Sequence record: MW584153.1
Length of the DNA: 64,000 nt
Source of the DNA: Mycobacterium phage prophi79-1
Direction: 5' to 3' (one strand)
The notes beneath the pieces are model-generated. The model did not search any database. It was not told where the DNA came from and saw only the letters and a list, made by a program, of their open reading frames with translations. Both the position numbers and the translations under genes were made by a program. Of the stretch, positions 8,380 to 62,962 are shown piece after piece. The number at the start of each line of letters is the position of its first letter. The first letter of the stretch is position 1.

Positions 8380-8460
8380 GGGTTCCTTCCCTTCGTCGGT
8401 GGGTTTGTTCCCTGCCTGACAAGATCAACAATACCTATGGTGATAGGTATTAGTCAACCC
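8380..8460 (-). promoter_or_regulatory. leftward promoter-operator-leader module (copy 1)
   Basis: Minus strand reads TTGACT - 18 nt containing palindrome ATACCTATcaccATAGGTAT - TATTGT, then leader CAGGCAGGGAACAAACCCACC, then GGAAGGAACC RBS and GTG. Confidence 0.6.
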
Positions 8461-8465
8461 ACGGG

Positions 8466-9242
8466 GTGAGCACGGTCGGTGGTTATCGTCGCCATATGAC
8501 CTGCTCGTGGACCGTGGACCGCAGCTCCTTTCCCGCGCTGCCTAACGTCGGCGACCCGACATACGACGCCAAGCTGGCCATCCAGAACGCCGCCGAGGAC
8601 ATGGCGATCGAGGTGCTCTGGTCGCTGTCGGCTCGTCGGTTCGGTCAGTGTGAGGTCGTCGCGCGACCCTGCCCGCCAGCGTCGCAACTGCCGTTCCGCA
8701 CCTACTACACCGGTGATCCTGTGTCGCCATTCATTCCTGTGTTCGAGGCTGGCGCATGGCGCAATATGCATTGTGGGTGCCACTCGCGTTGCCGGACCTC
8801 TGGCCCGAGCATGGTCCATTTACCCGGTCCCGCAGGGAAAATCGTCAGCGTGACGATTGGCGCGGATGTCCTGGATACCGCCGAATACGTGCTGGAAAGC
8901 GATGTTCTCTACCGTCGCGGCGGGAAGTCGTGGCCAGCGCAGAACTACACCCTGCCCACCGGGGAGCCGGGAACGTGGTCGGTGCGATACACCCGCGGCG
9001 AGCCGGTTCCATCCGGTGTTCCCATCCTCGTCGGGATGCTCGCCAGGGAATTCATCAACGCCTGCTCCGGGAACAACTGCCGTCTTCCGCGCACTGTCGT
9101 GTCCACCACGCGCACGGGCGTCACCCATTCGTTTGACCCGTCTCGGATCTATGCCGCCGGCAAGACCGGCCTTCCCGAGGTTGACCAGTGGCTCGCCGCG
9201 GTGAATCCGAATCGGTTGATGCAGGGGCCGAAAGTGCTATGA
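8466..9242 (+). CDS. virion structural protein (head-tail/tail region), function unknown
   Basis: 258-aa ORF resuming the rightward structural block. Alternative ATG at 8496. Confidence 0.4.
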   Translation: MSTVGGYRRHMTCSWTVDRSSFPALPNVGDPTYDAKLAIQNAAEDMAIEVLWSLSARRFGQCEVVARPCPPASQLPFRTYYTGDPVSPFIPVFEAGAWRNMHCGCHSRCRTSGPSMVHLPGPAGKIVSVTIGADVLDTAEYVLESDVLYRRGGKSWPAQNYTLPTGEPGTWSVRYTRGEPVPSGVPILVGMLAREFINACSGNNCRLPRTVVSTTRTGVTHSFDPSRIYAAGKTGLPEVDQWLAAVNPNRLMQGPKVL

Positions 9243-9775
9243 CCGCAACAAATCCCCAATGCGAGGACCAGGCATCCGAGGCAATCACGGTCGTGATGAA
9301 CGTGGTCAGGCTCGTCTTCGACCCCGATGCCGAATGCCCGCCGATCGGCGGCGGATCCAAAGACGTCCGGTTCTTTACATGGGCAGGTGCGCCGTTGGCG
9401 GCCTGGGATGCCCATACCGTCAACGGTGAGAACTGTGCGCAGCCATTTCTGTGGGTACGGCTGGATATGCGTTACCGCACAATGTCTTTCCCTGAGGAAA
9501 CGCCCAATGTCGGAAACTGCTCTGGTCAACCAGTCATCGTGTTGGAGATCGGAGTGGGCAGATGCTCGACTATGGAGGCTGAGACCGACTGGGCCGCCAT
9601 TGCTCGCGAGGCTGAGGTCAGCCTCGATGACAGCTGGCGTATCGAGAAGATCATGTGCGCGGCGACGAATCGCCTTGTCGATAAGGGATTTCAGGTATCC
9701 GCCGAAAGCATCATCCCATACGGCCCCGAGGGTGGAGTTTCCGCCTGGTCAGGCATGATCCGAGTCGGTTTCTAA
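9239..9775 (+). CDS. virion structural protein, function unknown
   Basis: ATG at 9239 overlaps upstream stop (ATGA). 178 aa. Confidence 0.4.
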   Translation: MTATNPQCEDQASEAITVVMNVVRLVFDPDAECPPIGGGSKDVRFFTWAGAPLAAWDAHTVNGENCAQPFLWVRLDMRYRTMSFPEETPNVGNCSGQPVIVLEIGVGRCSTMEAETDWAAIAREAEVSLDDSWRIEKIMCAATNRLVDKGFQVSAESIIPYGPEGGVSAWSGMIRVGF

Positions 9776-9789
9776 CGAAAGGAAATGGC

Positions 9790-10113
9790 ATGCGCGAGGT
9801 CACGATCGAAGGCACAGAGACGCCGGCCGCCGGAGTGCTGGCACGCGGAAAGCGAGTCACCGTCGCCTACACAGCGCGTATCGCGCGACTGATCAGCTTC
9901 GGGTACGTCAGGATCGTCGGCGGCCCGACACCCGTCGAGCAAGCAGAGCCAGCCGACGATCTCGATGAGGTAGTCCAGCCCGAGCAGAGCGCTGAGCAGG
10001 GCGACCAGGCGACCGTGGACGAGTCGGTCGGTGACGACGCCGAAGTAGTCCAGCCGGGCGAGGGCAAGACCGCGTCACCGAAGGCTCCGCGTAGCCGTGG
10101 CACGCGCGCGTAG
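9790..10113 (+). CDS. small acidic protein (possible tail assembly chaperone-like)
   Basis: 107 aa with D/E-rich C-terminus. Overlaps next gene in a different frame. Confidence 0.35.
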   Translation: MREVTIEGTETPAAGVLARGKRVTVAYTARIARLISFGYVRIVGGPTPVEQAEPADDLDEVVQPEQSAEQGDQATVDESVGDDAEVVQPGEGKTASPKAPRSRGTRA

Positions 10114-10699
10114 ACCCTCCGAAGTCCGCTCGTCGTGGAAACACGACGGCCTTCGCATCGACATCGACGACCGCAGGCTGTACATAGTCGCCAAGAAAGG
10201 CATGCGCCCGCAGCTCGCGCGCATCCTCGATCGGATAGTCCTGCAGGCAAAGGCGATTACCAGCCGGCGGATTAACCACCCGTACAGCAAGACCGGCAAC
10301 CTGACGCGATCAATCGAGCGCACGCCCATACGTGACGTCAATCAGCATTCGGTCAAAGGCTCAGTGACGGCAGGCGGACCTATCGCTCCCTACGCGCGAT
10401 TCGTTCACGAGGGCACCCGTGCACACTTAATCAGGGCTCGCCCCGAGAATCCGACCGGGATGTTGCGGTTCTACTGGGTGCGCCGCGGGGATTTCACCAA
10501 GGCTTTACACCACGATGCCGCAGGCCGATTCACCACCGCGGACAGGGCGGTGAAAACAGTGCGTTTCACTGGTGGATACTCCGAGAACGGCAGCCTGTTC
10601 ATCGGTCCAAGCGTGCGCCATCCCGGCGCCCGGCCGAAGCCATTCTTACTCAAGGCCGCCCGTGACGTCACCGGATACACCGCGGTACGCAAGCGGTGA
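10097..10699 (+). CDS. HK97 gp10-family-like tail component
   Basis: Motifs TGNLTRSI and YARFVHEGT resemble the HK97 gp10 family signature (YAxxVExGT). GTGA-coupled to next gene. Confidence 0.4.
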   Translation: MARARRPSEVRSSWKHDGLRIDIDDRRLYIVAKKGMRPQLARILDRIVLQAKAITSRRINHPYSKTGNLTRSIERTPIRDVNQHSVKGSVTAGGPIAPYARFVHEGTRAHLIRARPENPTGMLRFYWVRRGDFTKALHHDAAGRFTTADRAVKTVRFTGGYSENGSLFIGPSVRHPGARPKPFLLKAARDVTGYTAVRKR

Positions 10700-61413: not shown

Positions 61414-61415
61414 GC

Positions 61416-61709
61416 TCAGTCGTCTTCTGCTGGACTGTTGAGGCCAAGGAAGGCTCGGACTGAACGCCGCTGCGACCGCAATGTCTCCAGCTCATCGATC
61501 ACATCTGTGACGGACTCGCGGACCCGGGTCAGCGCCTTGCCCAGTTCGCCGATCCAATCAGTTACCTCAGCGAGGAACTCGGCCTCGCTCTGGTTCAATC
61601 CGATGCCGGGTACCGGCCCGGCGGCTCCGCTGTAGGTGAGATCGTCAAGTGCGCTGATCAAGGCGAAGCGGGCTTCGGCCTCCGGGCTCGCTGATTTGAT
61701 GTCAGCCAT
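61416..61709 (-). CDS. acidic helical protein (97 aa)
   Basis: Start refined to MADIKSASPEAE. Confidence 0.35.
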   Translation of the reverse strand: MADIKSASPEAEARFALISALDDLTYSGAAGPVPGIGLNQSEAEFLAEVTDWIGELGKALTRVRESVTDVIDELETLRSQRRSVRAFLGLNSPAEDD

Positions 61710-62079
61710 TGACCAACTCCTCGTCCGTGACGCCGGCCAGCCGCTTGAGCACCGAGAGTGCGGCATCGATGAAGTCCCACCGCTTATCGTCTTCGTCCTC
61801 ACGATCGCCTTCGCACTCGTGATACTCCCGGTATAGAGCCAGAGCCTCCCCAGCGTCCTGCGGTGCCCAATCTGACGGTAGGAAGCCGCCTTTCGACAGC
61901 CACTCATCCACCGCGTCGAACTGTTCGGCCCACAGCGCGCATCGCTGGTTGGCGTATTCGGGTGTCCATTGGCTGTCGATTGCGCGCTCGGCGTGGACCA
62001 TGGCCCGCAGCTTCACCAGCGCCTCATTCGGATCCATGGCCACCTCCAAGCATGTTTTCGGTGATGTGCTTCTCGGCAC
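61702..62079 (-). CDS. acidic hypothetical protein (125 aa)
   Basis: GTG start at 62079. Confidence 0.35.
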   Translation of the reverse strand: MPRSTSPKTCLEVAMDPNEALVKLRAMVHAERAIDSQWTPEYANQRCALWAEQFDAVDEWLSKGGFLPSDWAPQDAGEALALYREYHECEGDREDEDDKRWDFIDAALSVLKRLAGVTDEELVNG

Positions 62080-62380
62080 TCTTGGAGGAGTCGAAAACCA
62101 AGTTCGTGTAGTCGATGTGGACGTACGAGATGTCGGAGGTCTCGACGTTGAATCGGGCGATCAGGTGCTCACGCGCTGTGCCGTCGAAATTCCGCCGGGA
62201 TTCGACCCAGACTCGCGATCCCTCGGGGTAGCCCTCACTGACGCCCTCGTCGTAGATGCGGCTCTCAACTCTTGCGCCATGCGCCGCGATGGTGGAGGGG
62301 GAGAACCAGAACAGCCCCGCTTTCTTGTTGGCGCGACGGATGTCTCCGATGTTGGTGAACCGAGATGTCTTGTCACTCAT
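62024..62380 (-). CDS. hypothetical protein (118 aa)
   Basis: ORF. Confidence 0.35.
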   Translation of the reverse strand: MSDKTSRFTNIGDIRRANKKAGLFWFSPSTIAAHGARVESRIYDEGVSEGYPEGSRVWVESRRNFDGTAREHLIARFNVETSDISYVHIDYTNLVFDSSKSAEKHITENMLGGGHGSE

Positions 62381-62880
62381 CCGTACACCAACTCCCCGAA
62401 CAGGCCGAACTGCACGATGTTGTCGGCCACCAGCGCGTCGTAGTCGCCTTGCTCCCCGTGGGTGGCTTCCGCGGCGAGGAACTGTCGCCAGTAGGCGTCA
62501 TCTCCCAGCGGCTTGCGCTGTTCCTCGGGGACGTCGATCCCGTGGGAGTTGACTTCGCCGCGGCAGTATCGGGCGAACAGGTTCGTCCCACGTTCGACGA
62601 CATCCAGATCAATTCGCAACGTGTGCTCGCGTTCTAGTCCGGTGATGCCCCACCCAGTGTCGTTCTGGTCGTCGATATCGGCTTCTGCGGACCGGATCAC
62701 TGCATAGAAGCCGTCTAGGTCGTCTTCGACCTGCTTGCCGCTTCGGTTGCTCCAGTGGTACATATGGACCCGGGCCCAGTGCTGAATGCCGCCCTCGATG
62801 GCTGTGGTGAAAACACAGTGCAGGAACGTCTTTCGTCCTACACTGAGCGGAGTCTTGGTGGCTGATTCAGCCGATGACAT
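62377..62880 (-). CDS. hypothetical protein (167 aa), first gene downstream of module copy 7
   Basis: Start refined to MSSAESATKTPLSV (ATG 62880) directly after leader GGGATTGAACCCACCCAAGAAGGGAGTAAACCC. Confidence 0.45.
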   Translation of the reverse strand: MSSAESATKTPLSVGRKTFLHCVFTTAIEGGIQHWARVHMYHWSNRSGKQVEDDLDGFYAVIRSAEADIDDQNDTGWGITGLEREHTLRIDLDVVERGTNLFARYCRGEVNSHGIDVPEEQRKPLGDDAYWRQFLAAEATHGEQGDYDALVADNIVQFGLFGELVYG

Positions 62881-62962
62881 GGGTTTACTCCCTTCTTGGG
62901 TGGGTTCAATCCCAACCTCTTGGCACTGCTTACAATACCTAGCACTATAGGTACTGTCAATT
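62881..62962 (-). promoter_or_regulatory. leftward promoter-operator-leader module (copy 7), divergent from ParB-like genes
   Basis: Minus strand: TTGACA - gTACCTATagtgcTAGGTAt - TATTGT, then leader. Confidence 0.55.

Follow-up and report, generated by a model that had tools for sequence, protein, structure and literature searches.

Leftward modules of a mycobacterial prophage combine a SigA-like promoter palindrome with twin covarying leader hairpins

Mycobacteriophages of Cluster K carry start-associated sequences (SAS), 13-bp elements with GGG...CCC ends that lie 3 to 9 bp before the start codons of non-structural genes, always in one orientation, about half of them with an extended start-associated sequence (ESAS) upstream (Pope et al. 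2011, PMC3203893). In phage Adephagia, the ESAS is now read as a 46- to 47-bp SigA-like promoter with an inverted repeat, the SAS following at the start codon (Freeman et al. 2024, PMC11373665). Since 2011, catalogues of SAS have come to cover about 350 Cluster K phages but offer no mechanism. Here, we describe an independent system of the same layout from an unrelated lineage: a family of leftward modules, each made up of a predicted promoter with a palindrome in its spacer and a leader that folds into two hairpins, in a 64,000-nucleotide stretch of Mycobacterium phage prophi79-1 (sequence record MW584153.1), which is referred to as the window. The initial annotation of the window took this architecture to be possibly undescribed, a view that the Adephagia pairing of ESAS and SAS (PMC11373665) contradicts; what the analysis adds is evidence that the start-associated element is a covarying pair of RNA hairpins, with a homologue in lytic Cluster B phages.

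Promoter palindromes and leader hairpins

The palindrome TACCTAT-N4-ATAGGTA, annotated from the outset as a repeated feature of leftward promoters, does occur six times in the window when up to two mismatches are allowed (8432-8449, 28480-28497, 29153-29170, 45636-45653, 49115-49132, and 62936-62953), against 0.01 expected from shuffled sequences, and all copies face left. Its outer bases alone, TACC-N10-GGTA, mark eight sites where shuffling predicts 0.14, the extra ones lying at 55625-55642 and 45714-45731. Read on the minus strand, a module begins with a -35 hexamer, which is TTGAC(A/T) in most copies, as annotated, but GGTTCA in module 2 and ATGACA in module 5; after one or two bases comes the 18-bp dyad, set in a 17- to 18-nt spacer, and then a -10 hexamer of the form TA(G/T)T(A/G)T (TATTGT, TATTAT, TAGTAT, TAATGT, or TAGTGT), whose first TA is the end of the right half-site. 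Hexamers and spacing fit host SigA-type promoters, and a generic sigma-70 scan scored two module copies at 10/12. Downstream of the -10, 9 to 14 nt lead to a first leader element (U), which is followed after about 9 nt by a second (D) and, 0 to 5 nt farther on, by the start codon.

Every module points leftward, including those of two cassettes (5927-8379 and 26948-29095) that are embedded, as first described, among rightward virion and lysis genes, the genes at 29180-31563 being lysins. The copies had been called near-identical; the six best modules share 59 to 76% identity in pairwise comparison and form a family with conserved blocks. This family comprises seven to eight promoters inside the window and two more past its end (at about 67.85 and 71.1 kb in window-equivalent coordinates, in the related contig L005), which drive leaderless genes, including that for RuvC. 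The initial list lacked those last two promoters, which were outside its reach, and had missed the U/D leaders at 28909-28945, 35374-35414, and 44205-44244.

The leader motif GGGA-N3-AACCC matches 15 times in the window, always on the minus strand, against 0.61 expected from shuffles (the annotated spacings of N4 and N5 yield no match), and both the dyad and the leader are enriched far beyond chance over the whole window. For the core of the leader motif, GGA-N3-AACC, the minus strand has 26 copies and the plus strand one. The leader has two parts: U and D are two copies of a single motif, both reading GG-ANNRAA-CC, and the presumed GGAAGGAAC-type ribosome-binding site is the second copy, D. 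Complementary bases flank this core and change together. Counted over 45 unique hairpins, 31 have GC as the third pair, 7 have AU, 4 CG, and 2 UA, with a single unpaired case, giving a covariation score of 0.32 (0.08 in shuffles, none of 500 reaching the observed value) that falls when the partner position is slid. RNAalifold, applied to full leaders, recovers the U stem with 34 GC, 8 CG, and no broken pairs, and the outer U stems are paired through varied sequences (GGC(A)GGG/CCCGCC, GGT(T)GGG/CCCACC, GGCGG/CCGCC, GTCGG/CCGAC, and CGGGG/CCCCG).

All 12 leaders of the window adopt the same two-hairpin fold at minimum energy, including the one at 48966-49012, which has a different hairpin at the U position, and five or six of the 12 have no module promoter directly upstream. 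With 18 leaders as its training set, a covariance model detects 12 window sites, each of them on the minus strand (E values of 1e-11 to 0.02); half of these sites were outside the training set. D ends 0 to 5 nt from the start codon in 11 of the 12 leaders, and all lie on the minus strand, none of them within rightward virion genes. The D hairpin, whose 5' arm is formed by the purine run GAAGGGA, occupies the Shine-Dalgarno position; some of its loops read AAGGAA, and many (ATTGAA, ACTGAA, AGTAAA) contain no Shine-Dalgarno sequence. Neither hairpin has the makeup of an intrinsic terminator or attenuator, being followed by purine-rich spacers or the start codon rather than by T runs, and a terminator scan of 44-64 kb lists no U or D. 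Taken together, the strand specificity, the location in 5' leaders, and the compensatory base changes favor an RNA structure over a site in double-stranded DNA; what had been described as a linear motif is two RNA hairpins with covarying pairs.

For comparison, five prophage genomes of 74 to 76 kb and two fragments were collected from IMG/VR through proteins 73 to 99% identical to those of the window and assembled in the window's orientation. The five genomes retain all module elements, with 9 to 11 palindrome sites in each. Every one has 25 to 30 motif cores on the minus strand and 0 to 3 on the plus strand, 15 full motifs, and 6 to 11 TACC-N10-GGTA sites; minus-strand U-D pairs number exactly 11 per genome, and the plus strand has none. 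Orthologous promoters vary at the N4 center, the inner half-site bases, and the flanks and keep the -35, TACC, GGTA, and the T-A...T of the -10. Module 6 shows this best: in relatives D and E, its promoter is heavily substituted, yet these same elements and U are kept. Information content is highest at TACCTAT/ATAGGTA and at the -10.

The module system is narrow in distribution. Chance singles and unrelated tandem arrays aside, the twin motif is confined in IMG/VR to the same six prophage genomes, and the 185,579 species-representative genomes of GTDB yield scattered singles only, two of them unrelated occurrences in Mycobacterium. The covariance model has no match in Cooper, Knocker, Adephagia, or prophiGD43A-5, and no Rfam family reaches its gathering score on either strand of the whole window. 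In unrelated metagenome-assembled genomes of Bacillota, Nostocaceae, and Lachnospiraceae (L152, L185, L151, L145, and L170), 8 to 15 same-strand copies of GGA-N3-AACC occur within 8 kb; these clusters are probably tandem arrays or arrays resembling clustered regularly interspaced short palindromic repeats, with no tie to the prophage.

Readings of the dyad and the hairpins

On balance, we favor a reading in which a single phage-encoded dimeric helix-turn-helix (HTH) protein represses most leftward units through the dyad while the U/D hairpins act on RNA. Most leftward transcription units would start at one host SigA-type promoter family; the dimeric protein would bind the 18-bp dyad and block RNA polymerase at all module promoters jointly, resulting in a global shut-off of leftward (early) genes, be it in the lysogen, at a late stage of infection, or in both. 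A dimeric HTH repressor is chosen because the left half-site, which is free of promoter constraint, is nonetheless conserved and symmetric with the right one, and because the outer bases of the dyad are kept inside every spacer while inner bases and flanks drift, as befits an operator for one dimeric regulator. On the RNA side, U would shield the 5' end, or an end generated by processing, from 5'-dependent RNases. Hairpins near the 5' end can protect mRNA from RNase E and RNase J, and U begins 2 to 7 nt from the 5' end if transcription is assumed to start about 7 nt past the -10. D and U together would make up a specialized translation-initiation region read by the ribosome or a trans-acting factor, with D as the functional counterpart of the Cluster K SAS.

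Several observations weigh against this reading. The right half-site overlaps the -10 and, therefore, owes part of its conservation to the promoter, and the leftward units at 45805-46616 and 49156-49515 have no module promoter. The initial annotation likened the system to immunity: the part of that proposal in which one repressor serves a dispersed regulon fits the spacer dyad, but the link to immunity is uncertain, given that no annotated immunity repressor was found and that lytic Cooper has homologous dyad modules; the palindrome may therefore serve early-gene shut-off and is not bound to be an operator for immunity only. As for the hairpins, the covariation counts include orthologous sequences, with about 23 independent hairpins per genome; the fold z-scores of single leaders are modest (-1.1 to -3.4); and D stems have just 3 to 5 bp. 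U/D pairs also lie inside operons (28909-28945, 35374-35414, 44205-44244, and 48359-48398), and the pair at 37331-37363 stands about 90 nt downstream of its variant promoter. Protection of the 5' end is, therefore, not the whole story, and a role in translation initiation or processing is needed too.

More tentatively, and with rather less confidence than we place in repression through the dyad, the twin hairpins might dock a dedicated trans-acting factor, encoded by the phage or associated with the ribosome, that switches translation or stability at about 12 mRNA starts. If so, an RNA-level regulon would overlie the DNA-level operator regulon, and the Cluster K SAS (GGG-N7-CCC) would be a hairpin of the same kind, so that the SAS puzzle, now 15 years old, would gain a testable footing in structure. 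The covarying third pair lends itself to designed mutants that break and restore it.

Each element has also been weighed against other explanations. It is unlikely, in our judgment, that the dyad is a promoter-specificity or activator element, through which a phage factor recruits or redirects RNA polymerase, or a structural inheritance from Cluster B, instead of an operator. Two observations speak for such a role: Cooper and Knocker, lytic phages with no need for an immunity repressor, have the same architecture, and TACC-N10-GGTA followed by GT(A/G)T occurs upstream of the RuvC gene in several Cluster B4 phages; yet lytic phages also shut off early genes, so that a repressor is compatible with Cooper. 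Moreover, near-consensus -35 and -10 hexamers at the optimal 17 to 18 nt should make an activator unnecessary, and a spacer-filling site that overlaps the -10 holds the classical position for steric repression. Spacer activators of the MerR type work on spacers of 19 to 20 bp.

We give somewhat less credence to U and D as DNA sites, that is, as direct repeats about 21 bp (two helical turns) apart at which a repressor would block elongating RNA polymerase in an orientation-dependent manner, as at Cluster A stoperators. The 19- to 22-bp phasing and the single orientation relative to transcription are stoperator traits as well (PMC3203893 contrasts SAS with stoperators), and the pairs do lie in short intergenic gaps, but a protein reading double-stranded DNA would not need a flanking pair that covaries over all four Watson-Crick types with 1 of 45 broken, nor outer U stems that stay paired with differing sequences (GGC/GCC, GGT/ACC, GGCGG/CCGCC, GTCGG/CCGAC). 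The stoperator consensus is also absent from the window, and no U or D lies in rightward operons, whereas stoperators occupy both arms.

Slightly more doubtful still is that the modules chiefly serve as "boundary" sequences for recombination or as cassettes of the moron type, conserved by repeated horizontal exchange at gene borders rather than by shared regulation. One leader does stand before different downstream genes (44205-44244 in relatives C and E; module 48a in relatives B and E), and the gene behind module 3 is replaced in the window; exchange of this kind would explain mosaic joints but not fixed promoter geometry, dyad symmetry, strand bias, or compensatory changes, and modules are also found upstream of core replication genes that are syntenic with those of Cooper. 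Finally, a chance or compositional artifact of a GC-rich genome, for which only the shortness of the motifs could be argued, is refuted by the counts (6, 8, and 15 against 0.01, 0.14, and 0.61), by the 26-to-1 strand ratio of the core, and by conservation in five other prophages and is virtually excluded.

Candidates for the favored dimeric repressor are the proteins encoded at 26948-27771, behind module 2, the weakest of the modules; they may bind the palindrome. The XRE-like HTH protein (27382-27771, minus strand) is an orthologue of Cooper gp42, and its putative recognition helix reads KPKSFSDIE where gp42 has PRRDYQRIE, a difference in step with that between the two dyads and suggestive of a candidate dyad binder. 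The neighboring 140-aa protein (26948-27370, minus strand), orthologous to Cooper gp41, consists of two tandem DNA-binding domains that arose by duplication within the protein: both residues 3-60 and residues 68-127 resemble gp41, a DNA-binding protein of 68 aa, and the whole is in effect a single-chain "dimer." Among the repressors proposed initially, the XRE-like protein thus stays a candidate, but the tandem-HTH protein at 45202-45582, while still a candidate, is not favored as immunity repressor: in Cluster F, Cluster J, and Gordonia phages, its homologues go under the generic name of early "HTH DNA binding proteins," and Cooper has no homologue. A third, the supposed AP2 regulator at 46056-46616, is an HNH endonuclease-type (homing-endonuclease type) protein.

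A rightward pair at 47127-47920 encodes an RHH_10 protein and a 199-aa PHROG 645 protein; the latter is the orthologue of Cooper gp69, its PHROG label "Rnase E" is doubtful, and residues 8-47 of the tandem-HTH protein match the same PHROG 645 profile. The 510-bp non-coding gap that runs from the leftward HNH/AP2 gene to the rightward RHH gene (46617-46800) holds repeated ATCATGTCAA and TGACA motifs and a TGTCA-AAAA-TGACA palindrome, and it could be a second, different regulatory region. A DUF3310 protein (40873-41436), common to the prophage and Adephagia (gp51), was considered as a factor acting at SAS and set aside: the co-occurrence is weak because Cooper has a DUF6378 protein at that position and DUF3310 is widespread.

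Individual modules and the surrounding prophage

All modules and leaders given here are on the minus strand. Module 1 (8377-8457) drives the leftward cassette 5927-8379 within the virion operon from a GTG start at 8379; its -35 TTGACT (8452-8457), palindrome TACCTATCACCATAGGTA (8432-8449), -10 TATTGT (8428-8433), U core (8401-8412), and D core (8380-8391) are identical or near-identical in the five relatives. Module 2 (28425-28505), with a weak -35 (GGTTCA, no TTGAC), a palindrome whose left half-site is degenerate (TACCGACAACCATAGGTA, 28480-28497), and a -10 TATTAT (28476-28481), has its U core at 28451-28462, a D-like hairpin CGG-AAAGGA-CCG at 28432-28443, and an ATG at 28427. It drives genes for a DUF6011 protein (27855-28427), the XRE-like HTH protein (27382-27771), and the tandem winged-HTH protein (26948-27370). 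A variant palindrome at 27405-27422 was rejected as the promoter of the last gene, since it falls within the XRE-like gene, at the 3' end, and is without a -35; its conservation may stem from the coding sequence.

The internal leader at 28909-28945 has no promoter palindrome; U (GGGATGAACCC, 28932-28942) has a pentaloop, D (GGAACGGACC) is at 28913-28922, the ATG is at 28909-28911, and a GC-rich, terminator-like hairpin lies upstream at about 28964-28985. Module 3 (29093-29177) consists of a -35 TTGACT (29172-29177), palindrome TACCCATTGTTATAGGTA (29153-29170), -10 TAGTAT (29149-29154), U core (29120-29131), D core (29100-29109), and ATG (29093-29095). In the window, it drives only a remnant open reading frame (ORF) of 14 codons (29051-29095), where relatives have a 134-aa DUF7432 gene (L001 8376-8780); the flanks are otherwise collinear, and the DUF7432 locus has, therefore, undergone a precise replacement or deletion.

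Farther along, the internal leader at 35374-35414 precedes a 55-aa membrane-like gene (ATG 35374-35376) and has the strongest fold z-score, -3.4; U reads GGCGG-ACTGAA-CCGCC (core 35400-35411, CG third pair), and the D core is at 35381-35392. The variant module of the helicase gene (37325-37483) has a -35 TTGACA (37478-37483), a left half-site TACCCAT (37470-37476) with a degenerate right half, and a -10 CAGTAT (37455-37460). Its leader is about 90 nt long and CA-rich, with the U core at 37352-37363 and the D core at 37331-37342; the probable helicase start, ATG 37345, falls between U and D, which places D inside the first codons. The stretch at 37364-37450 is unstructured, with ccaccacac-type repeats, as in the leaders of Cooper gp48, gp52, and gp57. 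Next, the internal leader at 44205-44244 (U GTCGG-ACTGAA-CCGAC, core 44230-44241; D core 44208-44219) precedes a DUF7457 gene with its ATG at 44207.

Module 4 (45580-45660) precedes the tandem-HTH gene (ATG 45582) and has a -35 TTGACT (45655-45660), a -10 TAATGT (45632-45637), a U core at 45605-45616, and a D core at 45585-45594; its palindrome, TACCCATGGTAATGGGTA (45636-45653), is a symmetric, weaker variant (TACCCAT/ATGGGTA). The TACC-N10-GGTA site at 45714-45731, which has no assigned strand, lies 78 bp upstream of that palindrome, as it does in relatives A, B, C, and E, and is a possible auxiliary operator. In the internal leader at 48359-48398, U is CGGGG-ATTGAA-CCCCG (core 48384-48395) and the D core is at 48363-48374, straight after which a 24-codon ORF (48287-48361, ATG 48361) begins, joined by an ATGA overlap to a 73-aa gene (48069-48290) whose product looks secreted. 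Relatives B and E lack the short ORF, and the D hairpin immediately precedes the 73-aa gene.

Module 5 (48966-49139) combines a -35 ATGACA (49134-49139), the perfect palindrome TACCTATAACAATAGGTA (49115-49132), and a -10 TAGTGT (49111-49116) with a long leader (z = -2.9) that has its divergent hairpin at the U position (48990-49012), a D core GGGATTGAACCC (48969-48980), and an ATG at 48968. Module 6 (55569-55649) has a -35 TTGACA (55644-55649), palindrome TACCTACAACAGCAGGTA (55625-55642), -10 TAGTAT (55621-55626), U core (55593-55604), and D hairpin AAAGG-AAATAAA-CCTTT (55570-55586) before a TTG start at 55571. Module 7 (62878-62960), the first promoter of the long leftward early block, comprises a -35 TTGACA (62955-62960), palindrome TACCTATAGTGCTAGGTA (62936-62953), -10 TATTGT (62932-62937), a U core (62902-62913) with a GGT/ACC outer stem and bulged T, a D core (62881-62892), and an ATG at 62880.

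The window is the left 64 kb of an integrated tRNA-Asn prophage of about 75 kb in total. Positions 1-35 belong to a host tRNA-Asn(GTT) gene, of which they form the 3' end and which lies downstream of dnaG; related prophages repeat this core, about 35 nt long, at their right end (L041 14980-15033) beside a tyrosine integrase, from which the extent of the prophage follows and the two cores are identified as attL and attR. The remaining 12 kb, read from related contigs (L005 and L041), contain ParB-like genes, terminase, RuvC, portal, and integrase. Gene calls were taken from public contigs, of which JADLLC010000001.1 (assembly GCA_017175095.1) matches the window exactly. Gene order is collinear with that of the mycobacteriophage Cooper, a lytic member of Cluster B4: virion genes read rightward, a DNA-binding cassette reads leftward, lysin A and lysin B read rightward again, and a long replication/early block follows in the leftward direction. 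The gene at 29180-30421 encodes lysin A (M23 peptidase and amidase), with lysin B next; an "integrase" at 29180 was, accordingly, rejected, the true tyrosine integrase lying at the far right end, outside the window.

A published survey ties Cluster B to temperate "Cluster AD" prophages (PMC10654092), and the present prophage would be a Cluster AD member. Its tail genes are about 95% identical to those of M. abscessus prophages; prophiGD43A-5 and prophiT46-2 were dismissed as close relatives, sharing short segments only and differing in architecture. In an otherwise Cluster-B-like genome, the portal/MuF-type genes are separated from the capsid gene by the integrase cassette. Just inside attL, at 110-131 and 186-207, a 22-nt sequence, CCTGTCGGGGGATGGG(G/A)TTCCG, is repeated directly at a distance of 76 bp; the two copies may be sites at which the integrase binds, of the arm type. 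At 56897-59119, a leftward gene encodes a 740-aa protein, probably polymorphic-toxin type cargo; the stretch in which it lies matches the WXG-100 motif genes of M. abscessus prophages at about 78% DNA identity.

Comparison with described phage systems

The initial comparison with stoperators is a loose one. Like the stoperators bound by gp71 in Cluster A (L5), the prophage dyads are dispersed in many copies, assigned to one repressor for many units, and oriented to transcription; stoperators, however, are asymmetric 13-bp sites (GGTGGMTGTCAAG) that lie mostly in transcribed intergenic DNA and act on elongation, whereas the dyads are symmetric and sit in promoter spacers. Searching the window for GGTGGMTGTCAAG gives 2 matches with 2 mismatches, where 3.4 are expected. 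In the Streptomyces phage phiC31, the c repressor acts through many dispersed inverted-repeat operators at an early promoter family, with a different host, promoter type, and sequences. The 17-bp palindromes of Cluster O (TGTTCGGNNNCCGAACA) are likewise multicopy dyads for a predicted dimeric protein in phages with strongly predicted SigA-like promoters, some of them leaderless (Cresawn et al. 2015, PMC4351075), but these repeats differ in sequence, lie mostly outside promoters, and number more than 30 copies over both arms (PMC4351075).

The ESAS/SAS pair of Cluster K is the closest described analogue, and the prophage modules are analogous to it, not members of it. Both systems have about seven dispersed SigA-like promoters, with -35 and -10 separated by 17 to 18 bp and an imperfect inverted repeat, and both place a GGG...CCC-ended element a few nucleotides before the start, in one direction, at non-structural genes only; starts are mostly ATG, and additional start-associated copies occur without a promoter. 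The initial annotation's likening of the leader to SAS, in form, is borne out. Read directly, Adephagia sites run TTGACA, inverted repeat, -10, about 8 nt, GGGATAGGAGCCC, 3 to 5 nt, and ATG, with no U hairpin between promoter and SAS, where the prophage has U. The Cluster K inverted repeat, with 15 to 17 bp per arm, spans the -35 and extends past the -10, in contrast to the 7-4-7 dyad within the prophage spacer, which is shorter and of different sequence. A prophage D variant, GGGAAGGAACCC, is one deletion and one substitution away from GGGATAGGAGCCC, and the SAS consensus itself, at up to two mismatches, matches the window once (with two mismatches, away from the modules), against 1.75 expected. 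The right arms of the prophage and Adephagia share the DUF3310 domain and one 45-residue stretch of another protein only; the lineages are unrelated. SAS are invariant, with an AGGAG loop, whereas prophage D loops vary and often contain no Shine-Dalgarno sequence, and these variable loops on covarying stems, absent in the invariant SAS, indicate the RNA hairpin as the functional unit.

Homology, by position and layout, links the modules to those of Cooper, which has a seven-copy family (six copies against 0 expected, and a further one in the left arm) preceding the syntenic leftward units gp19, gp43, gp48, gp87, gp93, gp98, and gp99. A Cooper module reads cTTGACT-TACCCG(a/c)C..G(g/t)CGGGTTA-GTGT, about 14 nt, GGCGGGAC(a/c)GCCCCGCC, AAGGAG, and ATG; in common with the prophage are TTGACT, a spacer dyad starting with TACCC, a -10 TAGTGT, and a GC hairpin GGCGGG..CCCGCC. 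The Cooper dyad, in contrast, is GC-rich (TACCCGNC...GNCGGGTTA) and one base longer, there is neither an ANNRAA loop signature nor a D hairpin, the Shine-Dalgarno sequence is a plain AAGGAG, TACC-N10-GGTA occurs only once, and the phage is lytic, without an integrase. Knocker has the same layout as Cooper, so promoter, dyad, and 5' hairpin are ancestral to the phage group; the AT-rich dyad, ANNRAA loops, and D hairpin are specific to this prophage lineage. In the literature covered, which is incomplete, we found no paper on promoter repeats in Cluster B or Cluster AD. A group of Mycobacterium prophages has its leftward regulon defined by the promoter-operator family, which is of use in engineering lytic derivatives for therapy and as a source of repressible promoters for mycobacteria; the homology of this family to lytic Cluster B modules suggests that temperate and lytic lifestyles can share early-promoter control, with operator and regulator diverging together.

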